From contig JBAXOY010000024.1 of assembly GCA_037133055.1 (NCBI GenBank), positions 1 to 29,874 of the forward strand: 29,874 nucleotides of DNA. The letters run 5' to 3'. The position numbers were made by a program, and so were the translations under genes. This DNA comes from Chlamydiota bacterium. Its GTDB lineage: Bacteria > Auribacterota > Tritonobacteria > UBA1439. The notes beneath the pieces were generated by a model that was not told where the DNA came from, made no database searches, and was given only the letters and a program-made list of their open reading frames with translations. Shown piece after piece: positions 3,115 to 29,874 of this stretch (position 1 is the first letter of the stretch; each line of letters opens with the position of its first letter).

Positions 3115-3143
3115 ATTGTACCATTTTTGCCTTCATCGCGCAA
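3115..3143 (-). promoter_or_regulatory. sigma70 promoter for a probably leaderless PIN TA transcript
   Basis: TTGCGC-N17-TACAAT with an extended TG; 6 nt separate the -10 box from the GTG and there is no RBS. Confidence 0.6.
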
Positions 3144-3267
3144 ACAGGCGAGAGGTGAGACCCTACTATTACCTGGATTCGGCGGGACGATCACGGGAAT
3201 CACGTCCACGATGGGGACGAATAAGATTGGAACATCCTGCAGAAGATGGAATTGTACACAACGTCTG

Positions 3268-12800: not shown

Positions 12801-12810
12801 GAAAACGCAT
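3826..12810 (-). CDS. Giant (2994 aa) secreted surface protein/adhesin: parallel beta-helix regions, carboxypeptidase-regulatory-like Ig domains, many IPT/TIG domains, PT linker, CTD
   Basis: Signal MRFRYLIPLVAVIAFFPSLSRA; repeated P.V.SVSP..G.......ITITG.NF...Y.V.VTNP (IPT/TIG); NWW.TTD...I...YD and SVSG.I.D...TD.NG.YTIYGL motifs; PT-rich linker; RBS AAGGAG. Confidence 0.92.
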   Translation of the reverse strand: MRFRYLIPLVAVIAFFPSLSRAQTTAGTIYGVENWDSTMNPIIVTGDVTIDKDATLNIGPGTEVRFQENYDSTHWGWDLLRSELIVYGTLNISGTSDDIVILTSTGTAAAGWFGIIFSDTTATGTISYCNIDRGVYGINFTSCDGPLYGGVSPVISQCMINDVTTGMLFDGASAPSVDDCTIINASFGFECWAACTPAITNCNISGLAAGGRAVYATEYCSPVFTGCAFSSGLVDLDMDASVLMTDTTIAQTSSGIIGREYRSVGSAKILSSCALEASNCNIIGIGDQGNGIEWDDNLQMLKVEYSRIGGFTNNVWARWGSVDAQAGIYHMVGPRFAVPYTGMCTAGGTNSLLVDNAVDFLEIGADVGITVVNLTDGVSATILSIGNYAGGTNNALLTSGLGGGAIFNLYDSYRFTPRMDYNNIDLGDRGGSVTPSTLRNWPPGYVTSVGQNEFYGVQDPLCLYNIRMEQSAPVAPDLYQLEVWAEGNWWATTDDGPISRYIWDNAENSNLGAAHWIPHRSPDRKRTYSVSGIIVDSLNEPVEGVRVEVDISAQFPGHTVLADITDAEGYYTIYGLLPHATSYVVVPGKLGYTFSPATITVAIPVFTPSDVVGRDFTATLPVPFITGVSRADGLDGAAHGLPDRTNWGLISETTNIVITGLNFRDTPSVYIRGPIPGSSADTVCSNVVWVTSTRLTATLPAGLAGGNYAVRVVNPDGAEVIWGINTISGTCTGGSAVTLTDTATDFKARQVGPYAHLTNTTDGSTGIVTGVTGASYETLLISAGMSGGAVNTPGDSYTVYAAPGFTIVPPPAPVLSTIDPNPINYNDSVSLTITGQNFITGCNATIGGHTWASLVPGGGGTSLSIGYTPGTLAAGIWPVSVTNPDGQTSNFDVTLTVLGPPPPVVSTIVPNSGPNNRVTDVTIKGLNFIATPTVRIGTTYCMNVVYTNSTTLTAQVPTGITPGTYDVVVTNPDSGSGALAGGFTVLEPLVTVYGVSPPMGLATAETDIIVVGDNIKSSAGVPLVQVGKAPTWTACTNVRVVSSTCLMATVPSAIAAGLYDFRVDNVDPAGPGTMTNAYTVVGVPTISSPIVPNNGDANNTTSITVNGSGFVYIPKVEIMTAPNPTRCTDVRFVTALQLTANVPSGIAAGTYDVRVTNPLAQAGTLAAAYTVNVPPGGEPVVTSVSPSGGTNDGATDITITGLNFTGATVTVGGTSCAVGTVTATSITATVPAGLRVGSHDLKVTNGVGSGTLTHAFTAGGSGTLNANTTLAGTVSLTGDLVVPAGVTLTVEPGSMLVFDALSDDSSGGWDNERGEIRLYGRLDLLGEATNRVAMTSNGGAASDWLGVVFSATTASAWIEYSDITSAVYGLSFESNLNAPLAANPRPWIHNIYVANCATGVALNSSLAFTCPAIDTCSIDTVVTGITAKSTSAPIFTKVLFRNVTGVGLQGKENAIVTLYDSSIVDAPKAVSCPAKGVGEAANASILNVIFSVFGNGAVELSDSARLTARMVTHLLFPNEQVATGIVGDKAAVLRCGYSNVVQGSAAGIGIDWKSAGDCTVGYTVIESWGVGVKREGGCGAVDLGDGVTTGWNEFLGVMNPSATFNVWNDCATDMSARSNWWLTTDTSVIDNYLYDQLDDPALGNIDYTNFLAGPRTFSVSGRIADGSDTGADRVQVTAKYSTPHTDNDRMAMTDDNGDYTVFGLIPGTYTLSLEKQGYTFSPASLTVTVTDTDINGQDYLANLAPPTVYGIRRADGVVNPPYGTHWAYRPMATEVVITGLNFRPGATAALIGPLPVVNLNALTVQTLSSTTITATVPAGFALGGYGIRVTNTDTQASTWGADIANPAFTIINPPPPVVYSISPAEVYKDYVDAFVISGRNFFGAPEIHVGDIKGYYNFDSPYFDPRPTATTIYFRISAADLVSLCDQGAQAVQVFNPDGQGSNDDVTLTVNGPPAPSVINVSPSSGANNGVVEITITGTAFIATPAVTLIHSITGDTTACLNESFVSSTEITAQVPIGIDRGIYTVRVCNPPCSEGAPVKCGELASGYEVLYPPINVIGVSPPMGLAAAATDIIVVGESFDSVMSPTVAIGATACTNVRLISSTCILATVPSGMTPGLYPLTVDIAGLANAYTVVGTPTITSPIVPNNGNANKTTSITVYGTGFVYIPKVEIMTTPNPTRCTDVRFITALQFTANVPSGIAAGTYAIRVTNPLAQAGTLAGAYTVSAAPVGEPVVSSVSPTGGPNNGTTNITITGTNFTGTTGVTVGVTLCTNVAVVSPTQVSARVPAGLRVGSYDLTMTSAGSGTLTHGFTVGGSGTLAADTTIAGSATMTGDLVVPAGFTLTLEPAASLVFNALSDDTSGGWDGERGEIDVYGRINILGEAGGSVPILTSNGSAVSDWLGIVLSDTTASSWIDGVYLRYAVYGLDIESNLDATAANNPRPWVRNADIENCATGISVNSSTAFTCPAFDMCTIDTVTTGITADGTSAPIFTATLCRNITATGIEGKGSAILTVQGSSVMDAPAAVSCPVAGLGEATNASILNLVFSVLGNGTIGISDSAMLNARMVTHLLFPGTSIDAGILGESAASLAWNYSNIVQGNASGMGVDWKSSGNCAISNTVFENWGVGLTREDGCGTVKLGNSAPTGGNEFLGVLNPSATFNVKNNCPEDMNARFNWWLTTDTTLIEKFLYDESDVPALGNIDYSNYLTSPRTHSVSGRITMAVTPTPGVTPIPTPADRVQLYARYATPYTDNDRIGMTDQNGDYTIYGLVVPSIPPGYTYTITPAKQGYAFLPVSISVTLLDTDLNGKDFVMMPIVTPPTAIPTATPTPTATPTPTAPTPTPTITPTRTPTITPTFTPTLTPLPSLLIINTSPSNPKVFGPLRIDVNIDASVLGSTRVDAWGAIYTAAGGVQYLVGPPPCRLSATAAPIARGVTLTGGYSGTLLSVASIPLGNEGTHKVVVGLIGTGVTPDPAAPDYHFIPRYWDEDFVTVTLP
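4400..10130 (-). repeat. About 3.16-kb (~1050 aa) internal tandem duplication in the giant gene
   Basis: Matching anchors at offsets of about 3160-3170 nt (6151 vs 9313; 4771 vs 7939); e.g. FVYIPKVEIMT.PNPTRCTDVRF.TALQ.TANVPSGIAAGTY occurs twice. Boundaries approximate. Confidence 0.85.
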
Positions 12811-12928: not shown

Positions 12929-13124
12929 GTAACTACTCAGGTAGTCAGAAGTCAGAAGCCAGAATCCAGAATGGATCACGCGAATAAGCTTCCAATAGCT
13001 TGCTGACATCTTCGAGTAACCGCATTAAACTCGGAAACATCGCCATATCCCAAGTCCTCAAATATCGCTGCAGGCGCTCTTATTCCAACTCCTGACTCCT
13101 GAATTCTGGCTCCTGTGCAGTTAC
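12929..13124. mobile_element. 196-bp MITE-like element with 12-bp TIRs and 8-bp target-site duplication
   Basis: Left end GTAACTACTCAG (12929-12940) vs right end CTGTGCAGTTAC (13113-13124), 10/12 complementary. CAATTATA flanks both sides (12921-12928, 13125-13132). Internal inverted heptamer arrays. Confidence 0.8.
12945..13083 (-). pseudogene. Internally deleted four-helix-bundle (23S rRNA IVP-like) gene
   Basis: RAPAAIFEDL (N-terminus) is fused at GACTTG (13051-13056) to DLGYGDVSE / LMRLLEDVSKLLEAYSR / ILASDF* (C-terminal helix), with frameshifts. Confidence 0.7.
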
Positions 13125-14829: not shown

Positions 14830-17076
14830 TCAATATCCCGGCACCGATCCGAGGCCGTGGCGGAGCTTCTTCGGCTCCCACCATTTCATCTTCGGGATAT
14901 TGAGCTGCCTGTTCTGCTCCTCACGCTGGCCGATCCAGAGCATGTCCTTGTTCTCCTCGGTCACCACGTTTGCGGTGACGAAAATAAGGATGTTGCTGTT
15001 TCGGAGTTTCTTGGAGGAGTACGCGAAAAGGTACGGGCCTACCAGGGGGATCTCGCCGAGAAGCGGAACCTTGTTCACGGTGTCCGATTCGTCCTCGCGC
15101 ATCAGCCCGCCGATTGCCAGGGTCTGGCCGTTCCGGATGAGCACGTCGGTCTCGGCGGTACGCGTGGAGATGATGGGAAGCTGCGCGCTTGTCGCGCCGC
15201 CGAAGGTGGTGAAGGAGAGGATGTTGCTCACCTCGGGGACGACCTTCAAGTTGATGTATTCGTCCTCATTGACGTGCGGCCTCACCTTCAGGATGATGCC
15301 GATGTCCTTGTACTGGAAATTCGAGATCTCCCATTGGCCGGTGTCGTTGTTGAACTGAAAATTCGGTATCGGCCACTGGTCGGCCACCTTCATGACCGAG
15401 TCCTTGTTGTCGGCGGTGACGATCTTGGGGTGGGAGATGAGGTTCGCGTCGGTCTGCTCCTGAAGGAAGTTCAGGGTGAGCTGGAAGTTGTCGGGGGTGA
15501 GAACCGCCTGCGTGAGCTCCGTGGTCACGACCTTGCTTCCCCCCTGGTTGACGCCGTAGGGATGCGAGGTGAGCGATCCGAGCGGGAGCAGCTTCCCCCC
15601 TTCCCCGCCGATGGTGCCGTCGATGCCGGTCACCCCGTCGGTCGTGTTCCTGGTCGTGCTGTTCTGGTCCACGGCCGTGTTGTCGTTCGTCGTCGAGATG
15701 GTAGTGCCGCCGGGAATCAAGGTGGACGACGTGTCCGTCGCCGTCTTTGTCTTGGTCTTGCTGTCCTGCTCGGTCAGTATGTTCTGGAAGATATCCGCGG
15801 AGGAGTCTTCCCTGGCGCGGGTTTCTTCCCGGGCGATCCCCCACAGCCCCTCTCCCTTCGGTGGCCCGATCGATACGTTGTAGCCCTTGAGGGCGACCCA
15901 GTTGATGCCGATGTTCTCGTCGAAGTCGTCCTTGAGCTCGAGAATCCGCGCCTCGATCAGGACCTGCGGGGTGCGCCGATCCAGCCGATAGATAACCTCC
16001 TCGATATCGCTCAGCTTCTTCGGGATGTCGGTGATCACAATAGTGTTGCTCCGGTCGTCCGGCTTGAGCTGGCCGCGCTGGGGGGTGAGGAGGTGCGTGA
16101 TGGAGTTCGCCACGTCCTTCGCCTGCGCGTAGCTCAGGGGGAAGACTTTTGTCTCCATCGGCTCCTTGTCGAGCTGGTCGCGGGACAGGATGCGGAACAC
16201 GTTTTGCTGCTTCACGTAGGAATAATTGTTTGAATCGAGGATGAGCTTCAGGGCCGTCTCCCAAGGCACATCCATGAGGCGGATGGTGACCTTGCCCTTT
16301 ACCTCGGGCCCGGCGATGATATTGATCCCGTAGCGCATGGAGAAAATGCGGAGGATATTCACGAGGTCGGCGTCTTTGAAGTCAAAGGTGACCTTGCCGG
16401 ACGCGGGGGTGCCGACGGGCGTGGCGACCGTCTTGACGCCGACGACGGCCAGCGGCGTCGGGGTGGCCGCTCCCGAAAGGGCCGGGGAGGAAGGCGGCGG
16501 GCCGGGGAGCTCTTCCCGTATCGCCCCCGCCGCGGGCGTTGTCGCGGCGGCTGCCTGCGCCGGGACCAAGGAGGGATTCGCCTCGAAGGGGACGGCTCCC
16601 ACCTGCACCGGAGCCGAGGAGGGCGCGACCTCTACGGGGACGGCTCCCACTTGCACCGGGGCCGAGGAGGGATTCGCCTCGGCGGGGACCGCCTGGGCGG
16701 CCTGCGCAGGCACGGGCGCCGCGCCGCCCTTCTTCACCACCCGGATGACATCCCCTTCCTCCACGTACGAGAGATTGCAGGCGTCGAGCACCTGGCCGAG
16801 GGCGGTTTCCCACGGCACGTCTGCGATCATGACGGTGACCCTGCCCTCTATCTCCGGGCCGGCGATGATGGGGATGTTGAAGCGCTTGGAAAACGTCGCG
16901 AGCACTTCGTGAATTTCAGCGTCCCTGACATTGAGCGAGATGAGGCCGCTCGTCTCCCCCCCCGCCTGGGGGGAAGGAGGGACGGGTGGGGCCGCTTCCT
17001 GGGCAATCGCCGACGACAACACAAGGGCGCCGGCGCAGAGCGCGCAGCAGAGCGTCGCCCATTTATTTGCGCTCAT
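14830..17076 (-). CDS. pilQ: PilQ/GspD-family secretin
   Basis: Two STN/N0-type domains (ISLNVRDAEI; VTFDFKDADL..GKVTIRL.DVPWETAL), N3 (FPLSYAQA..DDRSNTIVITD), secretin (PQVLIEARILE, PKIVTADN, DIGIILKVRPHV, GQTLAIGGL, KVPLLGEIPLVG). Likely start MSANKW at 17076. Confidence 0.93.
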   Translation of the reverse strand: MSANKWATLCCALCAGALVLSSAIAQEAAPPVPPSPQAGGETSGLISLNVRDAEIHEVLATFSKRFNIPIIAGPEIEGRVTVMIADVPWETALGQVLDACNLSYVEEGDVIRVVKKGGAAPVPAQAAQAVPAEANPSSAPVQVGAVPVEVAPSSAPVQVGAVPFEANPSLVPAQAAAATTPAAGAIREELPGPPPSSPALSGAATPTPLAVVGVKTVATPVGTPASGKVTFDFKDADLVNILRIFSMRYGINIIAGPEVKGKVTIRLMDVPWETALKLILDSNNYSYVKQQNVFRILSRDQLDKEPMETKVFPLSYAQAKDVANSITHLLTPQRGQLKPDDRSNTIVITDIPKKLSDIEEVIYRLDRRTPQVLIEARILELKDDFDENIGINWVALKGYNVSIGPPKGEGLWGIAREETRAREDSSADIFQNILTEQDSKTKTKTATDTSSTLIPGGTTISTTNDNTAVDQNSTTRNTTDGVTGIDGTIGGEGGKLLPLGSLTSHPYGVNQGGSKVVTTELTQAVLTPDNFQLTLNFLQEQTDANLISHPKIVTADNKDSVMKVADQWPIPNFQFNNDTGQWEISNFQYKDIGIILKVRPHVNEDEYINLKVVPEVSNILSFTTFGGATSAQLPIISTRTAETDVLIRNGQTLAIGGLMREDESDTVNKVPLLGEIPLVGPYLFAYSSKKLRNSNILIFVTANVVTEENKDMLWIGQREEQNRQLNIPKMKWWEPKKLRHGLGSVPGY
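16550..16695 (-). repeat. 48-bp (16-aa) tandem repeat, about 3 copies, in the PilQ linker
   Basis: AVPAEANPSSAPVQVG / AVPVEVAPSSAPVQVG / AVPFEANPSLVPAQAA. Confidence 0.85.
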
Positions 17077-17507: not shown

Positions 17508-18113
17508 TCACTTCTTCGTTTCCGCCGCGACTGGCTTTGCCTCGAACCCCTTCCTGACAAGGTAGCGAACGAGGAGCACAACCTTCTGGCCAGTCGGCTC
17601 GTTGCCCTCGATGGAGACGTCCGTGATCTCGATGAACCTGTTCGTGCCCTCGATCCCGGCGAGAAATTTCCCAAGCTCGTGGTATCCGCACTGCATCTTG
17701 ATCTCCCACGTCTTCTCGGCGTACTTCGCCTTGAGGTCCGCGTCGAGGGAGGAAATCCCCGCCGCCACGGGGATAAAGCGCTGGCTTACGTCCCCCACCC
17801 CTGACTGCCTGGCTATCGCATTGATTTGCCGCGAAAGCCATGTTTGATCGGTTTCCATCGGTATGTCGTTCGCCGCCGTATCGATCTTCGACTGGAGGTC
17901 TACGACCTCCGCCCGCTGCTGGGGGAGGTGCAACACCATCATCTCGGCCTTGAGAAGCTGATCTCGATATGAGCCGGGAGACTCCTGCTTCTCCCTGCCT
18001 TTGGATCCTTTGGCGAAGGGGGAGGGCCACATCTGCCAGGCGACGATGACCGCCAGCAGGCTGAAGATCACGGCAACCGCGATGAGCTCGATCTTCTTCT
18101 TTTCGATTGGCAT
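17508..18113 (-). CDS. pilO: Type IV pilus assembly protein PilO
   Basis: N-terminal TM, coiled coil, IP.ETD..WL..INAIARQSGV, CGYHELGKFLAGIE..RFIEITDVSI. Confidence 0.88.
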   Translation of the reverse strand: MPIEKKKIELIAVAVIFSLLAVIVAWQMWPSPFAKGSKGREKQESPGSYRDQLLKAEMMVLHLPQQRAEVVDLQSKIDTAANDIPMETDQTWLSRQINAIARQSGVGDVSQRFIPVAAGISSLDADLKAKYAEKTWEIKMQCGYHELGKFLAGIEGTNRFIEITDVSIEGNEPTGQKVVLLVRYLVRKGFEAKPVAAETKK

Positions 18114-18124
18114 ACCTACCTAAA

Positions 18125-18400
18125 AAGGTTCAAACAGTTCAAGCGGTTCAAGCTGTAATCCGCGTTCATCCGCGCCGATCCGCGTCCCAATCGTCATTCC
18201 TTTTAGCCTCGAATCATTTTTGATCTGCGCTCATCTGCGTCCAATATCCTCTTGCCGTTTCCCATCACGCCCACACGCCGATACGCCCTCACGCCCACAC
18301 GGCTGTTCTCTCCGTGTCCTTCGTGCCTTCGTGGTGAGAAGCTTTTGTTCAAGCGGTTCAATCGGTAATCCGAGTTCTTTCGCGTCAATCCGCGGTAAAA
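18125..18400 (-). repeat. Modular periodic-repeat array (A-B-C-D-A-A-B) between pilN and pilO
   Basis: Modules read on the minus strand: A GGACGC(A/G)GATGAACGC(A/G)GAT; B GCTTGAACC/GTTTGAACT 9-mers; C CACCACGAAGGCACGAAGGACACGGAG; D GTGTGGGC 8-mers. Confidence 0.9.
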
Positions 18401-18423
18401 CATCCATCCCGACCGAAGAGCAA

Positions 18424-19011
18424 TCATTTCTTCTCTTCTTTCTTCGGCTGAACAGGTTGCACCGGCTGGGCGCACTTGATCTCGAACGATTTTCGCCCCT
18501 TGTCGAGGCTCTCGATGGAATAGTCCACCTGGGGGAACGCGTTGATGAACGCCGCGTTGCGGCGAAGGGTCTCGATGAACTCCACCACCTTCTCGTTCCC
18601 CTGTCCGGGGACGGCTTCGCCCTTGACGGTCAGCATCACGGGCTGCCGGGAGCTGTAGTTGATATTCATGAGGAAAAGCTCCTCGGGCATCGCGTCGCTT
18701 ATCACGTTGAGCTTCTGCCCCCAGAGCAGCCTCTTCGCGGTGAACCGGTCGAGTGTATCAAGCTCCTGCATAAGCTGGTTCTTCTTCTTGATGAGGGACT
18801 CCGCCTCTTCGCGCTGCGGCGTTATGGCCCGGAGACGGCTCCTTACCTCGCTGAGCTTTCGCACGCGCTGGCCCACGATGACGAAGATGATGACGATTAT
18901 GACCACCGCCACCGCCACCGCTCCGCCGGTGAGGATGGCGATGTTTATCTTGACCTTGCGCACACGCTCTATCTTGCGCAGTTCCTCCGGCAGCAGATTG
19001 ACATGTATCAT
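18424..19011 (-). CDS. pilN: Type IV pilus assembly protein PilN
   Basis: MIHVNLLPEE motif, TM, coiled coil, ISDAMPEELFL, TVKGEA. Confidence 0.92.
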   Translation of the reverse strand: MIHVNLLPEELRKIERVRKVKINIAILTGGAVAVAVVIIVIIFVIVGQRVRKLSEVRSRLRAITPQREEAESLIKKKNQLMQELDTLDRFTAKRLLWGQKLNVISDAMPEELFLMNINYSSRQPVMLTVKGEAVPGQGNEKVVEFIETLRRNAAFINAFPQVDYSIESLDKGRKSFEIKCAQPVQPVQPKKEEKK

Positions 19012-19024
19012 GGTAACGCCAAAA

Positions 19025-19225
19025 ACAAGGGTTCAGGGTGTAGTGAAAAACAATTGTTCAAACAGTTTAAACGGTTCAAGCGGTTCAAGCGGCTAGACGT
19101 TACTCCCCGGCTCCCCCCTTCCCCGGCTCCCCGGCTCATTTCTCCGTGTTCTCCGTGGTGAGAAGCTTTTGTTCAAGCGGTTCAAGCTGTAATCCGCGTT
19201 CATCCGCGGCAATCCGCGTCCCGAA
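19025..19225 (-). repeat. Modular periodic-repeat array (A-B-C-E-B-G) between pilM and pilN
   Basis: Same A, B, C modules plus E (GAGCCGGG 8-mers) and G (ACACCCTGAACCCT). Confidence 0.9.
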
Positions 19226-19236
19226 CAACGTTTCCG

Positions 19237-20274
19237 CTAATCGCAGACCGCGAGTCCCGCCGCGACCGCCAGCAGGGCCTCCTTGCCCCGCGTGCCCTCC
19301 CTGCCGACGCCGCCCTCGACCGAGATGCCCCTGAGCGGGTCCCAGAGGGTGACCGTGAACCCGAACTCGGCGGACAGGGTCTCCTTGAGCTTATGGCAGA
19401 GCGCGCATCCCCCGCTGAGGTAAATCGTGCTCACGCTTTTGCTCATCTTGGATGATATGTAGCCGAATGTCGAGCGGAGCTCGCGGGCGAGCACCATGGT
19501 CATCGGGTTCATAAACTCGCTCACCGCGGGGTCGGCCTCCTCCTTGCGCTGTTCGGCCTGGCGGAAATCGATGCCGAGCCCGCGCGCGATGGCGAGGGTG
19601 GCGTTGTTTCCGCCCACCTCGATATCTCTCGTAAGGTCGAGGTTCTTCGCGGTAACGACATTGAGGATGGTCCGGCCGGCCCCCATGTGCACCAGGGAGA
19701 CAGTCTCGTCCGGCTTGATGTCGGGCATGGCGGATTCGAACGCGTTGGTAAGGGCGATCGAGTCGATGCTGAGAACCTTCGGGACGAGGCCGATATCCTT
19801 GAGGAGGTCGAGCCGCTCGTTGACCACGCTTTTTCTCGCCGCCCCAAGGGCGACCCTCATCTTCGCATTTTCCTTCGCTTCCGGGTCTAGGATGGGGCAG
19901 TCGAAGATGCAGTCATCCAGACTGAAGGGAAGAAGCATCTCGGCCTCGTACTTGATGCTTGATTTGAGATCGGCGGGGGTCATCCGGGGCATTTCGGTGA
20001 GCCGGACGATCACCCCCTTGCCCGATACCGAAACGCGGAGATCGGAGAAATCGAGGCCGCTGCGACTCACCGTGTCGGATACCGCCTTCTTGACGGCGGT
20101 AGCGGGCGGGGGGTTCTCCGAGTCGCGCTCCAGGGAAACGATCGCGCTGTCGAAGAGGGCCCATGCTCCAGTGTTGCCGCTGACGGCGACCATCTTGACC
20201 GAGCTGAAACCTATGTCGAGGCCGATTGCCTGCCTGACCTTGCGGTTTTTCTTCGGCAGCAGATACGAGAACAT
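19237..20274 (-). CDS. pilM: Type IV pilus assembly protein PilM
   Basis: AIGLDIGFSSVKMV, VSVSGKGVIVR, EAEMLLPF, IEVGGNNATLAI, IYLSGGCA, LAVAAGLA (actin-like). Start at ATG 20274 or 20301. Confidence 0.93.
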   Translation of the reverse strand: MFSYLLPKKNRKVRQAIGLDIGFSSVKMVAVSGNTGAWALFDSAIVSLERDSENPPPATAVKKAVSDTVSRSGLDFSDLRVSVSGKGVIVRLTEMPRMTPADLKSSIKYEAEMLLPFSLDDCIFDCPILDPEAKENAKMRVALGAARKSVVNERLDLLKDIGLVPKVLSIDSIALTNAFESAMPDIKPDETVSLVHMGAGRTILNVVTAKNLDLTRDIEVGGNNATLAIARGLGIDFRQAEQRKEEADPAVSEFMNPMTMVLARELRSTFGYISSKMSKSVSTIYLSGGCALCHKLKETLSAEFGFTVTLWDPLRGISVEGGVGREGTRGKEALLAVAAGLAVCD

Positions 20275-20465
20275 GCCCCCGCGCCCCCCGGTTGCGCGCA
20301 ACGCCCGATGTATCCGGAAAGATGGTGAACTACTTGTATGTCAAGCGTATGGAGGGCAGTCTACCTGAGCGAGTTAACGCTGTCAATAAAATGAGACTCT
20401 CTCGTCATACCGGTCACTTTGCCGGAGCGGTTGCATGTGCTACAGTATCCGCCGGGGGGAGAACA

Positions 20466-22403
20466 ATGTCGCCCACAGGCATGCCGCTCCGCGCGCAGGT
20501 CATCATGCTGGCCCTTCTCGCGGGAATCATCTACTCCAACACGCTTGACAATGGGTTCGTCTGGGACGACGTGTATCTCATATCCCGGAACGTCAATGTT
20601 CACCACCTTCGCTATGTCCCCCGCCACTTCACCTCCCCGTTTTTCGGCGATACAAACGACCCCACCGCCGTGAATCGCGGTTCATACTGGCGGCCCCTGA
20701 CGATGCTTTCCTTCAACCTCGACTACGCCCTGTGGAGAAACAACCCGACCGGCTACCACCTGACCAATCTTCTGCTTCACTCGTTCAACGCCGTGATGGT
20801 GCTCCTCCTCTTCAGGGCCATTCCCCGCACGCGCCATGCCGCCTTCCCCGCGGCGTTAATCTTCACCTGCCATCCGCTTCAGACCAACATCGTGGCATAC
20901 ATATCCGGGAGGACCTACCTTCTCGCGGCGCTGTTTCTCCTCCTCGGTTGTTTTATCCTGGCGCGGCGGCTCGCGTGGCCGGGAGACGCGCGGGGCGTCG
21001 GATGTATCGTGACCGCATGCGCTGTCGGGGCGTGCGGCGTCCTGGCGATGTTGTCCGTCGAAGTCGCGCTCGCCGCGCCACTGCTCATCCTGATTGCCGG
21101 GGCGCTGGCGGGCCGTTTACTCGCGCGCCCCATGGTCCATTCAGTTCTCGCTTCCGCGGTCGCGCTCTGCGGCGCGCTGTATTGCCGCCATCGCATCGGC
21201 ATCCCCTCCCCCGCCGTGAACTCGCTGTCGCTCCGCACAGTTCTTGCCGCGGCCGATAGTCTGATGGTGTATATCCGACTCCTTCTCCTGCCCGTGGGCC
21301 TCCACATGGAGCGCTTCATCCCGGTGCCGGCCTTATCGGATCCGGGGGCGCTCATGGCAGCCGGCCTGTTGATCCTCCTGGCACTGATGACCGTGCGGGC
21401 CTTTCTCCGCCGCGATGGAGCGCCCGGCCCCCTACTCTGGTGCTGGGCATTCACGGCCTTTTTCCCCGCGAGCAACGTCATTCCGATCTATCCCGAGATC
21501 GCGAATCGGCAAATCTTTATCGGGGAACATTTCCTTTATGTCCCGCTTATCGGGATTTCTGGGGCGATTGCCTGTGCATGGGAGTCCCTCCGCGCCCGAT
21601 GGGGGGGGGCCTTAAGGCCCCCCTACGAGGGAGGGGAAAATCGGGGGGCCTTGACCCCATGCGAAGCGGGTGGGTTTCGGGCGGACTTGAGGCCGTCCTG
21701 CGGAATTGGTCGCACTCTTTCGATGGCGGGGGGGATTGCGGTGCTCGCATTATTCAGCGCCCTCACCTATGCGCACAACGAATACTGGCGGGATGAAGAT
21801 ACCTTCTACTCGATGACCCTGGCGAAATCCCCTGAAAGCGTGAGGATGAACACCAACCTCGGCATCTTGAAGGTGAGCGAGGGCGATTACGAGGAGAGCC
21901 TCCGTCTCCTGCACGCGGTAGCCGCGCAGAACCCGCGGTCCGCCGCCGCACATATCAACCTCGGGCAGACATACCGCGCGATGGAGCGCTTCGCTGATGC
22001 CCGGAAGGAATTTCTCGCGGCGCAACGCATCTCGCCCGGGTCACCGGATGTCCTGAACGCGCTCGGCGCGCTCTCCATGGCCGAGGGAAAACACGGGGAT
22101 GCCGTAGCCTACTTCGGCAAGGCGATCGCCGCCTCGCCGCTCAGCCCCGGCGCGCGCGTCAGTCTCGCCACGGCATATCTGTCTCAGAACAAGGCCGTTG
22201 ACGCGGAGCGGGTTCTCAGGGGGGCGCTCGGGGTCGATCCCGGATCATTCGAAGCGCGGATGCTGCTCGGGATGTGCTATGAAAAGCTGAGACGCCTGAA
22301 AGAGGCTTGCGAGATATACCGCGCAATCGCAAAGGAATATCCCGACTACAGCCCGGCAGTGGAGAAAGCGGATCGACTTTCCCGTAAGAGAAATGAGCTT
22401 TGA
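20466..22403 (+). CDS. TMTC/DUF1736-like GT-C membrane glycosyltransferase with C-terminal TPRs
   Basis: YSNTLDNGFVWDD, YWRPLT, GYHLTNLLLH, HPLQT..VAYISGR, GEHFLYVP, W.DE..FY, then TPRs; ATG 20466 follows GGGAGA. Confidence 0.88.
   Translation: MSPTGMPLRAQVIMLALLAGIIYSNTLDNGFVWDDVYLISRNVNVHHLRYVPRHFTSPFFGDTNDPTAVNRGSYWRPLTMLSFNLDYALWRNNPTGYHLTNLLLHSFNAVMVLLLFRAIPRTRHAAFPAALIFTCHPLQTNIVAYISGRTYLLAALFLLLGCFILARRLAWPGDARGVGCIVTACAVGACGVLAMLSVEVALAAPLLILIAGALAGRLLARPMVHSVLASAVALCGALYCRHRIGIPSPAVNSLSLRTVLAAADSLMVYIRLLLLPVGLHMERFIPVPALSDPGALMAAGLLILLALMTVRAFLRRDGAPGPLLWCWAFTAFFPASNVIPIYPEIANRQIFIGEHFLYVPLIGISGAIACAWESLRARWGGALRPPYEGGENRGALTPCEAGGFRADLRPSCGIGRTLSMAGGIAVLALFSALTYAHNEYWRDEDTFYSMTLAKSPESVRMNTNLGILKVSEGDYEESLRLLHAVAAQNPRSAAAHINLGQTYRAMERFADARKEFLAAQRISPGSPDVLNALGALSMAEGKHGDAVAYFGKAIAASPLSPGARVSLATAYLSQNKAVDAERVLRGALGVDPGSFEARMLLGMCYEKLRRLKEACEIYRAIAKEYPDYSPAVEKADRLSRKRNEL
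21598..21705 (+). repeat. REP-like GC hairpin triplet in frame inside the TMTC-like gene
   Basis: GGGGGGCCTTAAGGCCCCCC-TACG, GGGGGGCCTTGACCCCA-TGCG, GGGCGGACTTGAGGCCGTCC-TGCG. Confidence 0.65.
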
Positions 22404-22424
22404 TGTTTGACGCGGAGGTTTACG

Positions 22425-22557
22425 AAGAAACCGTCTAACCGCTTGAACTGTTTGAACTGTTTGAACCGCTTGAACAAAAGCTTTTGACCACGGAAGACAC
22501 GGAGAGAAACTGCAAGAGGCTATTGGACGCAGATGAACGCAGAGCACGCAGATTTAC
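22425..22557 (+). repeat. Modular periodic-repeat array (B-C-A)
   Basis: CCGCTTGAA/CTGTTTGAA x4, AAAAGCTT, ACCACGGAAGACACGGAGAGAA, GCAAGAGGCTATTGGACGCAGATGAACGCAG. Confidence 0.9.
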
Positions 22558-22619
22558 AATGTTTCCTGAACCCCCACGACATAGCTTATCACCCGATCAG
22601 AAGCATCGGTTTACATAAT

Positions 22620-22666
22620 TTGCATTTGTGCGAAATATGGGCATGACTAATTTGCAGAAATGCATA
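22620..22666. promoter_or_regulatory. Tandem enhancer (UAS) candidates for the pilin promoter
   Basis: TTGCA-TTTG-TGCGAA (22620) and TTGCA-GAAA-TGCATA (22652), 32 bp apart, about 95-140 bp upstream of the sigma54 site across an AT-rich spacer. Confidence 0.5.
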
Positions 22667-22759
22667 ATTAAGACTAATGAGGATAGGAATAACTATCAAG
22701 TATCATTATAATCTATCGAATAGCAACATGTTATAGATATATTATATTTTCTTAAATTG

Positions 22760-22775
22760 TGGAACGGACCTTGCT
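22760..22775 (+). promoter_or_regulatory. sigma54 promoter of the pilin
   Basis: TGGAACGGACCTTGCT (GG-N10-GC). Confidence 0.75.
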
Positions 22776-22839
22776 CCACTAGGTTCCGTTGGAAGAGGTG
22801 AAAACCATCCAACAACCCAATGAAAGGGGGTGCAGTAAG

Positions 22840-23190
22840 ATGAGAAAGCGCGGTTTTACACTGGTGGAGATCATGATCGTGGTCGCGATCATAGGTCTGC
22901 TCGCGGCGATCGCCATACCGAACTTTATGCGGGCGCGCTCGCAGACGCAGATGAATACCTGCCTGAACAACCTGCGACAGTTCGATTCGGCGATGGCCCA
23001 GTACGCTCTTGAAAACAACCTTACAACCGGCAATACGTTCCCCTCGACTAACCTTAACGGGTTCCTGTCGAACCTGCTCGTGACCGATACATGTCCCGGC
23101 GGCGGCACTTACAGCCAGCTCGGCTCGATTGGGTCGGGAGCGCTTTGCTCCAAGTCGACTGACACTACCTTCCCGCATAGGATTCCGTAA
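22840..23190 (+). CDS. pilA: Type IV pilin (likely the major pilin), 116 aa
   Basis: MRKRG|FTLVEIMIVVAIIGLLAAIAIPNF class III signal; C-terminal Cys pair (TCPGGGTY...LCS); own promoter and terminator. Confidence 0.9.
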   Translation: MRKRGFTLVEIMIVVAIIGLLAAIAIPNFMRARSQTQMNTCLNNLRQFDSAMAQYALENNLTTGNTFPSTNLNGFLSNLLVTDTCPGGGTYSQLGSIGSGALCSKSTDTTFPHRIP

Positions 23191-23219
23191 TCGGGCATAA
23201 GACGGATCGCGAGATCACG

Positions 23220-23251
23220 AGAGGGCGGCTTGCGAAAGCAAGCCGCCCTCT
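23220..23251 (+). terminator. Stable hairpin after the pilin
   Basis: AGAGGGCGGCTTGC-GAAA-GCAAGCCGCCCTCT, perfect 14-bp stem; weak U-tract. Confidence 0.75.
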
Positions 23252-23296
23252 ACGTTTGTGTGCAAACGCCTGAAGAATATGAATACATGGGGAGAA

Positions 23297-23490
23297 ATTG
23301 GACGCGGATCGACGCGGAACAACAGTAACGTGGGACGCAGATAAACGCGGATGAACGCAGCTTACGGCTTGAACCGCTTAAACCGCTTGAACTGTTTGAA
23401 CATCTGTTTGTCACCACGAAGGCACGGAGGACACGGAGAGAACAGCCGTGTGGGCGTGAGGGCGTGTCGGTGTGTGGGCGTAATGGGAAA
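23297..23490 (+). repeat. Modular periodic-repeat array (A-A-B-C-D)
   Basis: Same modules; 23411-23490 is the reverse complement of 18258-18337 with 4 mismatches by eye. Confidence 0.9.
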
Positions 23491-23516
23491 GACAGCATTG
23501 CCACGGATTCCCAACC

Positions 23517-25472
23517 TCATGCCTTTTTCGCCTTTTTGAAAATAACCAGCTCGATGACCATCTCGCCGTAGGCCTGGGCGGAAGAGACATCGGTGCGTCC
23601 ATAGGTGCGCTGGCCATCAAAAAAACAGTACGCTGAGGCGGGCCCCTCTCTCGCAATTGAAAGCTCCAGTTTCAGGGAGTCGCCCTGACGCAGCCGGATC
23701 CTCAACGGCTCGCTCTGTTCCGGGGGAAGCGGATATTCGATCCACTTCAGCCCCGGCTCAACCCTGATCCTGCAATGTTCCGCTGAACCGCTCCGCACGG
23801 CGATCAGGCAGCTCCGCTGGCTGAAGATGGGAAGCCGGACAGCGAGCGGTCCCTCTGCCAGAATACGACTCCCCGGGGCGAGGAGCTTGCGCACCCTCAA
23901 CGCCGGTTCTCCCGCGGGGAGCTCCACCGACTGCCAGCCGCCGAAGGGAAACGGCCCGCTGTCTTTGAGGGTGTAACGGTCGAGCAGCTCGACGCAGACA
24001 CCGTGGGGCCGGACATAACGCACTACCGCCGCCTCGCACCCGTAGCGATATGCGTCATAGCCGAATCCCACAAAGGCGACACAGGACATGAACATAATCA
24101 CGGCGCGAAGAAACGCCCGTTCCCTTTCGTGCTCGTGTTCTTTCACAGCGCGAACGAATCGCCGTACAATTACCGCGATGCCATAGCCCCCAAAGCCGCA
24201 AATGACCGGTAGAACGACAACGCGGTAGCGCGCCATTATCAGAAAAAAGAGCGACGTCATGCAATACAGCCAAAGCACCGCTTCGGCAAAAATGATGCCC
24301 GGTTTGCGATACGCCTGACGCAACGCAAGAAGCGCTCCGGCAAGCCCGAGGCCGCCGATGAGAGGAAAATCGAGCAAGAAGGGCATGTGCAGGAGGGGCG
24401 ATGGCACCGGCTCCAGACGCCCGGTTCGATGGTTCCAGTTCCTGATGGCGACGTTGTTGGGGATTTCCATCTTGTTCCAGAAGAGAAGCAACATACGGAA
24501 CTTGAGCTCCAGAAAGGCAAGGGGTTCGGCAATGAACCACCTCTGTATGCTTATGGAGATAGGGACGCGCCGGGAATTGGGGAGGGCATCGAGCCGTGTC
24601 CACTCCTCGTAGCACGGCGTGTACTCCATGGGCCCTGCCCCTGCCTCGGGATCCCTGCATCCCGGGGGCGACTCCGGCGTGTTTGCCAGAGCGAGGTTTC
24701 GTGAGGTCGATGTTACGGCTCCAACCCAGCGGCCTGCGCATCTATAGTTCACCACAGCGAATGGCAACTGCGGCAGGTAGGTGCAGAGGATGCAGAGGAG
24801 CACCCCCGTCGACATCTTTACCTTTTCATGCCTGAATTGCCACGCGACCATGGCGAGGACGGGCAACAGAAGAGTGACCATGCTGCCGCGGATCGTTACC
24901 GAAATGCCGAGTACAAGGCCGTCGAGCACCCATGGCCAGAGCCGTTTCCGATGATACGCCGCCACCCCGAGGTAAAGAAAGAGCGTGAGCCAGAAACTGA
25001 GCAGGATCTCGATCAGTGTGAATGGAGTGTAAAAAATGTGGAAGCGCGAAAGCGCGAGCAGCGCAGCGCCTGCGAGGCCCGCCGCACGCCCGAAGAGCCG
25101 CGCAGCACTCATGCCAATCAGGTACACACAGAGTGCTCCGAGCACGGATTGCACTAGTATCACCCCCGCGGGATCGGCGCCCAGAATCGCGTAGATCGCG
25201 GGGAGAAAAATTACGTAGTAGAAAGGCTGGTAGTAGAACCCCTGGCCGTACTTATAGCTCCCGTTGAGAACCTGCATGGCAAGCATCTGATAGACATGCA
25301 TATCTGTGGCCTGGCTCGGGCGGGCCACCTGCGGATAGGAATTTCGGAGCTGGCGACTTACTCCCACACGCAAGAGCAGGGAGACTGCCACAATTGCGAT
25401 CAGGAGAGGGGTAAACCCCTTTCGCAGTACGCGTGCCCTCCCGGTTTTTCTTCGATCGCTTGATTGCATCAT
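23517..25472 (-). CDS. ArnT/PMT-like (GT39/GT83-type) GT-C glycosyltransferase
   Basis: TDMHVYQMLA, FYYQPFY, multiple TMs, GLVLGISVTIRG, RYRVVVLPVI; C-terminal soluble domain. Confidence 0.82.
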   Translation of the reverse strand: MMQSSDRRKTGRARVLRKGFTPLLIAIVAVSLLLRVGVSRQLRNSYPQVARPSQATDMHVYQMLAMQVLNGSYKYGQGFYYQPFYYVIFLPAIYAILGADPAGVILVQSVLGALCVYLIGMSAARLFGRAAGLAGAALLALSRFHIFYTPFTLIEILLSFWLTLFLYLGVAAYHRKRLWPWVLDGLVLGISVTIRGSMVTLLLPVLAMVAWQFRHEKVKMSTGVLLCILCTYLPQLPFAVVNYRCAGRWVGAVTSTSRNLALANTPESPPGCRDPEAGAGPMEYTPCYEEWTRLDALPNSRRVPISISIQRWFIAEPLAFLELKFRMLLLFWNKMEIPNNVAIRNWNHRTGRLEPVPSPLLHMPFLLDFPLIGGLGLAGALLALRQAYRKPGIIFAEAVLWLYCMTSLFFLIMARYRVVVLPVICGFGGYGIAVIVRRFVRAVKEHEHERERAFLRAVIMFMSCVAFVGFGYDAYRYGCEAAVVRYVRPHGVCVELLDRYTLKDSGPFPFGGWQSVELPAGEPALRVRKLLAPGSRILAEGPLAVRLPIFSQRSCLIAVRSGSAEHCRIRVEPGLKWIEYPLPPEQSEPLRIRLRQGDSLKLELSIAREGPASAYCFFDGQRTYGRTDVSSAQAYGEMVIELVIFKKAKKA

Positions 25473-25584
25473 AGGAAATCAGGCGGTTACCACGTCGCGC
25501 TGGTTATCATGTGCGAGTGCGAGAGTAAATCTAACTTTCCCGACTTTTAATGATTTGTGTGATTCGGCCCTCTGTCAATAGGAT

Positions 25585-25830
25585 TTTACCACAATGAAGG
25601 AGACGGAGATATTGAGAGAGCAAAGGCACCCGGAAAGCAAAGGTACCGGAGAAAACGGTAAGGAGACTTTGGACGCGGATGAACGCGGATTCTCAGGATA
25701 GGGAGGATACAACAGAGCGAATAGCGAATGGGACGCAGATGAGCGCAGATTACGGCTTGAATCGCTTGAACGGTTTGAACTGTTTGAACCGCTTGAACAT
25801 CTGTTTGTCACCCTCCACCCCGAACCCTGA
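25585..25830 (+). repeat. Modular periodic-repeat array (C-like, A, H, A, B, G)
   Basis: GGACGCGGATGAACGCGGAT, AGCGAATAGCGAAT heptamers, TTGAA 9-mers x5, ATCTGTTTGTCACC junction, CACCCCGAACCCTG. Confidence 0.88.
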
Positions 25831-25870
25831 AAACTATCCTGTGCATCCCAGAGCTGATATAATCCCCCCC

Positions 25871-28168
25871 ATGAACGAAAGCCGATTCAACGCATGGAGA
25901 TCGCGGGTGCTTCTCATTTTTATCTTCCTCGTGCCGCTCTTCTACCTCGATCCCTATATCTTCGGCATCTTTTTTCCCGACCCGTTCAATCTGCCCAAGC
26001 GCTACCTCGTCGAGCTGGCCTCCCTCATCCTCCTGAGCCTCTTCGTTCTCGATCTCTCGACGGGAAGTGAACTGCGCATTCCCGTGAGGGGCGCCGCGAT
26101 CCCTTGGCTTCTCTTCTGCGCCTGGATGTGCGTGTCGCTCGCCTGGGCGCCGGGCCTCCACGATGCGTGGCAGGAGGTCATCCGTTGGGCCTGCTACGGG
26201 ATCATCTTTATATCCGCCGCGGAATCGCTGTCCTCCCCCGTCCGCGCGCGCGGCGTTGCGCGGTGCGTCCTCGCGTCCGCCTCGATCGTCTCCGCCATCG
26301 CGATCGCGCAGTTCTACGGCCTTGATCATCCCGCCTTCAGCGGCCAGGTGTTCCGGGTGTATTCCACGCTCGGCAACCCGAACTACATCGCCTCCTTCCT
26401 TGCCGTCACACTCCCCCTCGCCTACTGGGGGTGGCTCTGTCCCGGCACGGGGAGGGCAAGAGGGCACTTACGGTGGATGTTTTCACCCCCCACCCTGAAC
26501 CTCCCCCTCAAGGGGGGAGGGGAGTTAAAGGAGAGTCCCCTCAAGGGGGGAGGGCGAAAAGGGTACGAGCCCGCAATACATGAGACCGTACCGGGGAGGA
26601 GGGACACGATATGCCTCGTCGTCTCTCTCATCGGCACGGCCGCCCTCATGCTCACAGGGTCACGGGCCGGTGTCGCCGCGCTCTGCGTGGGCACGCTCGC
26701 GGGCCTCGCGTCCTCCCGCGCGAAGATCGCGCCGCGCCGCCTTGCGTGTTTGGCTCCCGCCGCCGCCGCGCTGGCGATCCTCCTCGCCCTCCCCTCCCCG
26801 ATCAACCGCTATGACACCGTGGCGATCAGGAAACTTTCCGAGCTGTCGGGCGCGCCGCGCGGCGGCGCCGGTTGGCGCATGATGGTGTGGGAAATCGGGC
26901 TCCGCATGGCCGCCGAGCGGCCTCTCCTGGGCTCCGGGGCAGGCTCGTTCAAGCTCCTCTATCTTCCACACCAGGCCGAATTCCTCAGCGAGACGGGCCA
27001 CGCCGGAGCCATTTCACTCGCCGAGGGCGGGATAGATTTTGCGCACAACGACTACCTCGAGATCCTGATCGAGACCGGGGCCGTGGGCCTCGCGCTCTTC
27101 CTCTGGGTGCTCCTGGCAATGGTGCGGCCGCTGAGGAAAGAGCAGATCAAGTCCCAAATCCCAAATCCCAAATCCCAAGCATTGGATATCGAATCTCAGC
27201 CCGCAATGAAGGCGGGCAAATCCCAAATCCCAAATCCAAAATCCCAAGCATTGGATATCGGCTGGATCCGCGCGGGCGCATACGCGGGCTGCGTCTCGAT
27301 GCTCGCGGACGCGATGGTCGGCTTCCCGTTCCGGCTATGGGCCCCCGCGGCGGTCTTCTTCGCGCTCTCCGGCTCACTTGGGGCAGGCGCCGTGTCCCCG
27401 CTCATTTTTCGAATAAAGGGCCCCATCGGGCGGATCGTCGCCGGCGTCGCGCTGGCGCCCGTCGCGCTCATCTCCCTCGGCTTCATCCTCTTTTCCCTTC
27501 TCGCGGAGATTCACTACGCGCGGGGCTTCAATCTCTTCCAGTACGGCGAGACCACACGGGCGTATGATGAGTTCACACTGGCGGCGTGGTGGCAACCCCA
27601 CCACGGGCGCGCGCGGTTCTTCCGGGGGCTTTGCCTCTCCGCGCGCGCGGAGTACGGAGACGCGCTCGACGAAATACGCGAGGCGCGACGCACCTACGCG
27701 CGCCAGGCGTTCCAGGTCCAGGAGGGGCGACTTCTCGGAAAATTGGGGCGCAGGAAGGAAGCCGTGCGGGAGCTCGATCTCGCACGCGCCATCGTCCCCC
27801 GCGACCCCGACGCGTGGGTGGAGAAGGGCGCGGTGCTGTTTGCGGGCGGCGACGCGCAGGGCGCGGCCGAGTGTTACCGCAGGGCCCTCTCGCTCAAACC
27901 CGACTCGCTCACGGCGGCCCGCAACCTGGCCGTGTCATACGACGCGCTCGGGAGGACAGATGTGGCCCTTCGGCTTTACACACGGGCGATGGAGATCGGG
28001 CCTGCCGACGCCGACGTGTACCTCAACGCGGGGACGCTGTGTGCCCAAAAGGGGGATACACGGCGCGCGCGGGAGCTCTGGGAAAAGGCGCTCGTGATAG
28101 ACCCGGGGAACACGCGCGCACGACTGAACCTGGAGAAGCTGGATAAATCCCCCCCGGCAAAGCGGTGA
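25871..28168 (+). CDS. O-antigen ligase (Wzy_C)/PglL-like oligosaccharyltransferase with TPRs
   Basis: YSTLGNPNYIA, LTGSRAG, WRMMVW, RPLLGSGAGSF, FAHNDYLEILIETG, C-terminal TPRs. The true start is probably ATG 25871; the upstream ORF extension is repeat read-through. Confidence 0.88.
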   Translation: MNESRFNAWRSRVLLIFIFLVPLFYLDPYIFGIFFPDPFNLPKRYLVELASLILLSLFVLDLSTGSELRIPVRGAAIPWLLFCAWMCVSLAWAPGLHDAWQEVIRWACYGIIFISAAESLSSPVRARGVARCVLASASIVSAIAIAQFYGLDHPAFSGQVFRVYSTLGNPNYIASFLAVTLPLAYWGWLCPGTGRARGHLRWMFSPPTLNLPLKGGGELKESPLKGGGRKGYEPAIHETVPGRRDTICLVVSLIGTAALMLTGSRAGVAALCVGTLAGLASSRAKIAPRRLACLAPAAAALAILLALPSPINRYDTVAIRKLSELSGAPRGGAGWRMMVWEIGLRMAAERPLLGSGAGSFKLLYLPHQAEFLSETGHAGAISLAEGGIDFAHNDYLEILIETGAVGLALFLWVLLAMVRPLRKEQIKSQIPNPKSQALDIESQPAMKAGKSQIPNPKSQALDIGWIRAGAYAGCVSMLADAMVGFPFRLWAPAAVFFALSGSLGAGAVSPLIFRIKGPIGRIVAGVALAPVALISLGFILFSLLAEIHYARGFNLFQYGETTRAYDEFTLAAWWQPHHGRARFFRGLCLSARAEYGDALDEIREARRTYARQAFQVQEGRLLGKLGRRKEAVRELDLARAIVPRDPDAWVEKGAVLFAGGDAQGAAECYRRALSLKPDSLTAARNLAVSYDALGRTDVALRLYTRAMEIGPADADVYLNAGTLCAQKGDTRRARELWEKALVIDPGNTRARLNLEKLDKSPPAKR
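26480..26572 (+). repeat. C/G hairpin repeat in frame in the ligase gene
   Basis: Copy of 13140-13200 with a duplicated CCCCTCAAGGGGGGAGGG; encodes FSPPTLNLPLKGGGELKESPLKGGGRKGYEP. Confidence 0.85.
27148..27260 (+). repeat. AAATCCC heptamer array duplicated at 69-bp spacing, in frame
   Basis: KSQIPNPKSQALDI x2, separated by the hairpin GCCCGC-AATGAAG-GCGGGC. Confidence 0.9.
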
Positions 28169-28177: not shown

Positions 28178-28284
28178 AACCGCTAATGGACGCTAATGAA
28201 CGCGAATTGATTGAAGAGTTATTCGCGTCTATTGGCGTGCATTCGCGGTTGAAATCAAGAGGCGACGAGGGCCCGTCGCCCTCC
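28178..28284. repeat. Inverted 10-nt-periodic arms plus a REP-like hairpin between convergent genes
   Basis: AACCGCTAATGGACGCTAATGAACGCGAAT-N13-ATTCGCGTCTATTGGCGTGCATTCGCGGTT; then GGCGACGAGGGCCCGTCGCCCTCC (28261-28284). Confidence 0.8.
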
Positions 28285-29676: not shown

Positions 29677-29731
29677 CGAATGCACCTCACGCGCCTGCTA
29701 TTCCGAAATTCTTTAACGCTTTGAAGTCGGC

Positions 29732-29840
29732 ACGCAGATGAACGCGGATCGTCAGGATGAACGCAGATACAGACTGCCGTTTCTGGTTTCTGTTAAAAGA
29801 AAAAAGAATGTTCCGCTGTAATCTGCGTTCATCTGCGTCC
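29732..29840. repeat. Module-A arms in inverted orientation
   Basis: ACGCAGATGAACGCGGAT..GATGAACGCAGAT (29732-29768) and ATCTGCGTTCATCTGCGTCC (29821-29840) flank about 50 nt of non-coding spacer. Confidence 0.85.
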
Positions 29841-29874
29841 AAAACACCGCTTAATTTTTAGCTGCTTTTTCTCT

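Follow-up and report, generated by a model that had tools for sequence, protein, structure and literature searches.

Why do five gaps between genes in and around one pil operon hold the same short tandem repeats, each time in a different order and each time on a single strand? The DNA in question is contig JBAXOY010000024.1 of assembly GCA_037133055.1, from a Chlamydiota bacterium that GTDB places in the Auribacterota. All 29,874 nucleotides (nt) of it are called the window here. The repeats form intergenic arrays, built from modules that are sorted into families named by letters. An earlier reading of the letters, the original prediction, had taken the modules for single arms of several mobile elements, concatenated and spread by a strand-specific or gene-conversion process.

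The explanation we hold to be probable is that the arrays are strings of terminal arms, matching those of small cassettes with a GxxExxY-nuclease or four-helix-bundle gene. Such cassettes would have stacked up by landing in or beside each other, after which recombination trimmed and reshuffled the stacks. The polarity of the arrays would reflect a filter against C-rich RNA.

Shared modules and fixed junctions

The window is contig C24 of a genome (G000) of 2.99 Mb, in 191 contigs and 92% complete; what is said below of the genome refers to this assembly. The module scan uses 22 unit motifs derived from de novo tandem-repeat clusters. Each of the five gaps carries three or four module families on one strand only, as had been predicted, while 200 shuffles of each of the five gaps give 0.01 family hits per gap. 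The modules are not confined to this locus. Genome-wide the scan finds 987 non-overlapping modules, in 398 gaps and 21 families, and 764 of them lie outside long genes although intergenic DNA is about 17% of the genome. The median distance from modules to the upstream stop codon is 17 nt. About a quarter of co-directional gaps hold modules (269 against 1069 gaps of 30-700 nt). Gene calls behind all gap and polarity counts come from our own simple caller. The predicted module H has to be given up as a family, with one exact doublet in 2.99 Mb, or two if a mismatch is allowed.

Neighbouring modules are joined by fixed sequence in a preferred direction, here too as originally described. Counted genome-wide on the same strand, C is followed by B 13 times, by A 12 times, by D 6 times and by E twice; A is followed by B 12 times and by C 5 times; B is followed by C 6 times and by G 3 times; and E is followed by B twice. 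The reverse orders B>A and D>C do not occur. Most junctions are simply the leader of the downstream module, irrespective of what precedes it. The B leader is present after C in 15 of 16 cases and after E in both, and the C leader is there in 6 of 6 cases after A and again after B. On solo C modules it is found in 25 of 60, against 10% expected by chance. Short shared words stand at the junctions, both at A>B and at B>C and B>G, which have a common leader.

Whole blocks are also shared. The arrays at 18125 and 23297 have 109 nt in common at 89% identity, and the array at 19025 shares 100 nt at 86% with contig C39. Copying of blocks with several modules fits these data. Exact blocks of at least 30 nt are found in 3 of 16 same-contig pairs and 11 of 930 others; 10 of the 16 pairs are from the window, and the pairs are not independent.

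The arrays are not of the CRISPR kind, given their periods of 7-10 nt and their mixed words, instead of constant repeats of 23-50 nt with unique spacers. Nor are they simple repetitive extragenic palindromes (REP): the units are non-palindromic tandem words, and two folded arrays, with z of -0.59 and +1.02, are no more structured than shuffles. Both exclusions had been made beforehand. At the ends of four arrays there is no direct repeat of at least 6 nt, and the fifth has one 6-mer; inverted ends were found at none of the five. No Rfam family reaches its gathering score anywhere in the window.

Arrays of this kind come and go among relatives. Seven relatives have different arrays or none in the equivalent gaps. 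The B pattern has 55 matches here and at most one in each of the two congeners; of 79 genomes in the phylum, 74 lack it, so its expansion or upkeep appears to be lineage-specific. By eye, sense-strand remains of the same modules and junctions, in eroded form, can still be made out in both congeners. Among contigs from four public sequencing runs there is no firm change within arrays, and an 8-nt deletion at 23415 may stem from another copy. No RNA run was listed among the runs that contain this DNA. Two runs contain relatives at roughly 90-93% identity, with modules at the same gaps; one contig of such a relative, at depth 5, departs from the window inside the B module 3' of the TPR gene, which is no more than a hint. 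The arrays had been said to split the usually tightly coupled pilM, pilN and pilO. This does not hold up as stated: counted by hand, the pilM-pilN gap is 70-113 nt in six of seven relatives and 298 nt in the seventh, and it is 225 nt here. The pilM genes of three relatives (G007, G005 and G004; L018, L019, L020) have an in-frame insertion of some 18-50 codons near residue 186, which in G007 overlaps a 10-mer tandem repeat.

Cassettes with the same arms

GxxExxY and the four-helix bundle are two very large families of tiny genes. Both had been predicted as cargo, and both are found between arms. The genome has two GxxExxY genes, each with A arms facing inward around it. Of its four four-helix-bundle genes, one has inverted J arms, one, an internally deleted copy, inverted N arms, one direct K arms (contig C91) and one no clear arms. 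In the full four-helix-bundle cassette on C135, and the deleted one on C60, an inverted repeat stem encloses the open reading frame (ORF). Two other predicted cargoes fared worse: DUF559 was not found in the 92% complete genome, and the Y1 transposase genes inspected as candidates for TnpA-REP have no flanking modules.

Other genomes supply the remaining matches. C arms plus leader flank GxxExxY genes in two relatives (G007 and G008). In the congener G002 a four-helix-bundle gene has the window's E word on its 5' side and the reverse complement of that word on its 3' side. A degenerate B pattern gives 111 loci in GTDB, where the exact 27-nt pattern gives none. Five of these loci, from other phyla and with four distinct genes, carry an extended four-helix-bundle gene, around which B forms direct repeats; both sides are visible in three. 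Another 24 loci are without a gene and have B in both orientations. In eight relatives, with the flanks of 19 of 28 GxxExxY and 28 of 49 four-helix-bundle matches examined, most of the genes have short-word arms as judged by eye. Modules A, C, E and B are shown to be arms of cassettes, and the prediction that they are single arms of several element types is borne out for these four. In the GxxExxY cassette on C122 an in-frame ATG inside the arm is followed by the same letters as the A>B junction. The shared tail makes the A>B junction appear to be a GxxExxY cassette's start with a run of B joined to it.

A search of the literature, largely in open-access journals, gave no description of repeat cassettes with GxxExxY or four-helix-bundle genes (TIGR02436, PF05635/PF13366), and a search by sequence found no solved structural relative of GxxExxY.

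Some families still stand as complete two-sided elements. The arms of family A point inward in all 34 gaps that contain both orientations, and those of family J do so in 25 of 26. This means that the uniform polarity of the arrays does not extend to every copy of a module. Elements are nested as well. J lies inside A on contigs C8 and C103. Relative G004 has palindromes nested four deep, with several copies near its pil locus, and a complete two-sided element in its pilM-pilN gap. Two-sided compounds that enclose others therefore exist in this genome as well as in G004, and it is as whole units that they are copied. No target duplications were seen by eye around A compounds.

Some A compounds have a REP-like hairpin at their outer end, as in 7 of 10 matches. 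The hairpin occurs at C8:33989, C13:18418, C76:14026, C85:6808, C154 and C160. The one at C76:14026 stands without an A arm, which suggests a small element of its own to which A arms became joined. No link was found between this hairpin and Y1 transposase genes, and a looser hairpin pattern yields mostly noise. On C111, at 1-330, the GxxExxY gene is preceded by three repeats of a unit of about 100 nt, which consists of one right and one left arm.

Family J gives the clearest view of movement. It has inverted ends of GTAAC type and about 25 copies in the genome, 22 of them with both ends. Their mean flank identity is 0.85 when 8 nt are compared, and 0.26-0.33 for lengths of 4-7 and 9-11 nt. The 8-bp target duplication is perfect in 8 of the 22, and in 14 of 22 seven or eight of the eight flank letters match. 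By these marks, J is a miniature transposon that moves and duplicates 8 bp of its target. The copy in the window is an internal deletion of the full four-helix-bundle cassette, and folds with a z of -3.5. The J end is found in three other genomes of the family, and in neither of the two congeners. The GTAA ends and the 8-bp duplication recall IS66.

It had also been suggested that the arrays affect mRNA processing. Given that the one-sided arrays fold like shuffles, unlike the J element, processing by an enzyme of the RNase III type seems unlikely.

Strand polarity and rival explanations

There are 37 co-directional gaps with at least two of the families A-G. In 30 of these the modules lie in sense, in 2 antisense and in 5 mixed. 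The orientation found on the mRNA strand is the one with more G than C. For co-directional gaps the ratio of G>C to C>G rises with module length: 78:36 below 35 nt, 32:9 from 35 to 60 nt and 25:2 above 60 nt, with 48 gaps of near-zero skew dropped. Between opposed genes the same motif-based count is 20:18. A motif-free repeat with a tandem-repeat finder gives 99:34 for co-directional gaps (26 dropped) and 15:16 for opposed ones. Module-free gaps stand at 385:265, and differ from 99:34 with a Fisher p of 0.0009. The G>C bias of unpaired modules on the mRNA strand is confined to gaps between co-directional genes.

The families differ according to their composition. B, which has no skew, is at 4:5 when alone; the C-rich family I is at 8:26, its 3' arm being the one that lies in sense; and K is at 10:2. 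Over 13 families the correlation has a rho of 0.58 (p 0.037). Since there is no bias between opposed genes, none for B and a reversal for I, selection on the transcript fits better than the strand-specific spreading that had been proposed. Within the window, the predicted rule was minus strand inside the pil operon and plus beside plus-strand genes. It holds for the three of the five arrays that lie between co-directional genes, all in sense. It is too simple for the array at 23297, in a convergent gap, and the one at 25585 lies in a divergent gap. Replichore was considered as the source of polarity and rejected, as array strand switches 3 kb apart inside the window.

The likely source of the polarity is selection that filters out long stretches of unpaired C-rich RNA between genes transcribed together. 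We infer that the filter is Rho-dependent termination, with Shine-Dalgarno-like words in G-rich arms as a candidate alternative. Rho is encoded in the genome. In E. coli it prefers C-rich unstructured RNA, and cyanobacteria are without it (PMC12258240). In Nostoc the coding strand carries the G-rich heptamer in 18% of cases and the opposite strand does so in 34% (PMC4692102). This off-coding-strand heptamer, in a group that lacks Rho, counts for a filter by Rho.

The cassette explanation as a whole would run as follows. Small repeat-armed cassettes would enter gaps just 3' of stop codons, mobility being seen directly in J alone, and land inside or beside one another, as the nested compounds do. 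Cargo genes and partner arms would then be lost by deletion, which is observed for J and presumed for the others. Each junction would arise once, through insertion or a microhomology deletion, and be copied later. Recombination between like modules would copy junctions and chain them into new orders; the sharing of blocks is observed, the process is our reading of it. Within an operon, a stack would persist only if the RNA that it leaves unpaired is rich in G, a cause proposed for an observed bias. The arrays themselves would have no host function and would only be tolerated.

A number of results weigh against this explanation. A mirror-image right half was sought for the five arrays and found for none. 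D has no exact cassette match, only similar 8-mer arms in relatives, and no cassette was matched to G or H. In co-directional gaps of this genome B, C and D are never two-sided (0 of 35, 0 of 46 and 0 of 20), so their two-sided ancestors have to be assumed from other genomes. No transposase of IS66 or IS4/5 type was found for J in the genome, which is 92% complete and in 191 contigs; IS66 and DDE_Tnp_1 searches gave no match there, and no long element with J ends was found in it. As for polarity, family M alone is at 1:7, contrary to the rule, and A alone only at 6:4. Of 182 skewed co-directional gaps, 47 hold C-rich modules. These exceptions are no more often hidden hairpins than the G-rich gaps are, and a promoter-like site lies downstream in 3 of 47, against 9 of 135 G-rich ones. 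Five relatives (about 1.27 Mb) give 30:16 against a background of 156:124, which is not significant (p 0.26). Xanthomonas repeats show no strand bias (30% and 35%), though many of them are paired (PMC4692102).

Other mechanisms could also produce one-stranded arrays. Transcription-linked or RNA-templated copying of the 5' arms of cassettes, with template switching at short shared words, would put the polarity into the insertion step itself. The closeness of modules to the upstream stop codon and the shared words at junctions would suit it, as would the four-helix-bundle protein, a distant relative of Avd (E 1e-5; 25.5 bits, below the model's cut-off of 80). Avd works together with a reverse transcriptase. 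A search of the 92% complete genome gave no match to RVT_1, however, family I keeps its 3' arm in sense, and polarity is missing both for B alone and between opposed genes, which makes such copying unlikely. A broader version, that GxxExxY and Avd-like four-helix-bundle proteins form an undescribed class of mobile cassettes, recognising their own short-word arms and targeting those of others, whose arms in this lineage now make up an actively growing one-stranded system of modular repeats, put into operons through an RNA-linked mechanism, strikes us as improbable too. The arrays could instead have been recruited as regulatory sites, to bind host proteins or to tune how stable and how well translated the mRNAs of pil and other operons are, with polarity from function, for example Shine-Dalgarno-like GGAG. 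Modules in so many co-directional gaps and the eroded traces in the congeners speak for this, and C- and J-type repeats of Geobacter have been proposed as regulator sites (PMC2700814). We still find it doubtful: the relatives hold other arrays or none in the same gaps, most genomes of the phylum lack the B pattern, and the folded arrays are like shuffles.

Two further proposals do without cassettes. Were the modules simple repeats born of slippage in place and homogenised by gene conversion, copy number would change in unit steps, as it does, and exact blocks would be commoner on the same contig, as they are. This origin is nonetheless very unlikely, and largely refuted by the cargo-bearing forms: cargo genes of other genera and phyla are flanked by the same words and leaders, and J copies have target duplications and retain pieces of their cargo gene. 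That the arrays are assembly artefacts, repeats collapsed in a metagenome-assembled genome, is hardly credible. Contigs from public runs do break at arrays. Yet contigs from runs X1 and X2 are identical to the window at 18332-19183 and 18332-19185, from one array through pilN into the next, and X1 contigs traverse most of the arrays at 23297 and 25585; X1 may itself be the source sample.

The window and known systems

The features of the window are collected in Table 1. A secretin gene, by Pfam, is also among those around the arrays. The array at 23297 lies beyond the terminator-like hairpin of the pilin gene, 34 nt from the stop of the minus-strand gene. The frame of the Wzy_C gene stays open upstream across the array at 25585, from an ATG in an A arm. 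This array may be a translated leader of that gene, but a start 3' of the array fits equally well.

Table 1 Arrays, elements and neighbouring genes in the window. Arrays are labelled as in the text.
Feature	Position	Strand	Remarks
Family-J miniature element	12929..13124	.	Inverted ends of GTAAC type; arms of 7-mers; four-helix-bundle gene with internal deletion; target duplication of 8 bp, perfect, on both sides
pilO	17508..18113	-	Pfam PilO, E 8e-9
Array at 18125	18114..18423	-	pilN-pilO gap; on mRNA strand degenerate A, B, C, D, A, A, B; modules 18120-18398
pilN	18424..19011	-	By position; without Pfam or NCBIfam match; syntenic homologue in 7/7 relatives
Array at 19025	19012..19236	-	pilM-pilN gap; on mRNA strand A, B, C, E, B, short G remnant; modules 19052-19223
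pilM	19237..20274	-	Pfam PilM_2, E 6e-51
Membrane protein with TPR repeats	20466..22403	+	
Array after TPR gene	22404..22560	+	Directly 3' of TPR-protein gene; eroded C, B, C, A; modules 22433-22547
Pilin-like gene	22840..23190	+	N-methylation motif
Terminator-like hairpin, 14 pairs	23220..23251	+	After pilin gene; pattern match only
Array at 23297	23296..23482	+	A, A, B, C, D; convergent gap, pilin gene / PMT_2-family gene
PMT_2-family glycosyltransferase gene	23517..25472	-	
Array at 25585	25585..25831	+	In a divergent gap; begins with an eroded C-like part, then A, the only H doublet (25716-25729), A, B, G
O-antigen-ligase (Wzy_C) plus TPR gene	25871..28168	+	Pfam Wzy_C
Two-sided element, A-like 10-mers (family X)	28178..28250	.	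Arms inward
Two-sided A element	29728..29844	.	Cut close to contig end

The window holds other repeats. The Wzy_C gene contains, in frame, two family-I heptamer runs at 27146-27249, which belong to a short tandem duplication. Palindromes of G and C runs appear to be inserted in frame at 21590-21700 in the TPR gene and at 26480-26580 in the Wzy_C gene; a related 12-mer, CCCCCCTTGAGG, has 37 copies in the genome. Further tandem repeats, at 4235-4349, 12943-13115 and 16554-16689, include one of Pro/Thr type in a large protein and one of 48 nt in the secretin gene. At 3826-12810, downstream of the pil operon, a protein of 2994 amino acids with a beta-helix and six IPT/TIG domains is encoded. Positions 1200-3300 are an AT-rich run of small minus-strand ORFs resembling toxin-antitoxin genes, those tested being without a Pfam match. 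They are separated by a repeated sequence of about 20 nt (near 2019 and 3261) and by an imperfect palindrome of some length at about 2715-2790. We take this run to resemble an integron cassette array.

Short intergenic repeats of 7-10 bases have been described as unexplained in Geobacter, Xanthomonas, cyanobacteria and Beggiatoa, and are usually seen as possible regulator sites. This genome combines source cassettes, nested compounds, a transposing derivative and one-sided debris, which points to one origin for such repeats. The strand-bias rule concerns only the composition of the mRNA strand between co-directional genes, and is simple and testable. If true, it would make such repeats markers of operon-internal gaps and of Rho pressure in uncultured bacteria.

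Several known systems share features with the arrays. The elements called miniature inverted-repeat transposable elements are like family J in their inverted ends, the 8-bp duplications and the origin by internal deletion of a longer element. The parent of J differs in having a four-helix-bundle gene in place of a transposase, and the five arrays have no such ends. The intervening sequences of 23S rRNA with an S23p or four-helix-bundle ORF (PF05635, TIGR02436; structure 2GSC) have inverted heptamer arms, like the J and N cassettes (PMC4990558). The five arrays, unlike these, lie between protein genes and have lost the gene and the partner arm, so that they cannot form a stem cut by RNase III; only the cassettes on C135 and C60 have a stem that encloses the ORF. 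Diversity-generating retroelements, which combine a reverse transcriptase with Avd and with template and variable repeats, are different: RVT_1 has no match in the genome, and the Avd model scores below its cut-off.

Bacterial interspersed mosaic elements (BIMEs) and REP doublets forming hairpins (REPINs) are likewise intergenic mosaics of a few motifs with recurrent junctions, and their singlets are described as defunct remnants of two-armed forms (PMC2817692, PMC3116915). The arrays share the mosaic with recurrent junctions in dispersed gaps. They differ in having non-palindromic tandem words, not REP hairpins with a palindromic unit of 20-40 nt, and in keeping to one strand where those alternate. 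Nor do they go with a REP-associated tyrosine transposase (RAYT): of eight Y1 transposase matches in the genome, four coincide with a called gene, and no module lies within 400 nt of these; the one scanned scores below the RAYT cut-off.

The arrays do belong among the abundant, mainly intergenic tandem arrays of 7-10 nt known as long simple sequence repeats, of the short tandemly repeated repetitive type. Xanthomonas and Nostoc have GGGAATC/GGGGATT (PMC4692102), to which the heptamer of family I is nearly identical, and Beggiatoaceae have an oriented intergenic heptamer, TAACTGA (PMC4679880). These arrays too are short, with 2-6 units each, lie close to a stop or start codon and have an orientation bias. 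Those studies treat one word each and leave its origin open, whereas here there are 21 words, fixed junctions and cargo-bearing source cassettes.

Also close are the "putative global regulator binding sites" of Geobacter metallireducens, which come in several, mostly paired classes (PMC2700814). Read as its reverse complement, module C is their class 2, and family J has its match in class 3. The sites form opposite-strand pairs at variable distance, and some belong to two classes. Unlike the arrays here, they have no cargo gene and no one-sided multi-family stacks in the text descriptions of that work, whose supplementary alignments could hold compounds. Single modules are thus already known, published as unexplained repeats in Geobacter and Xanthomonas. 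What is new is the one-sided stacks of several families, the map from modules to cassettes, and a polarity rule that can be tested.

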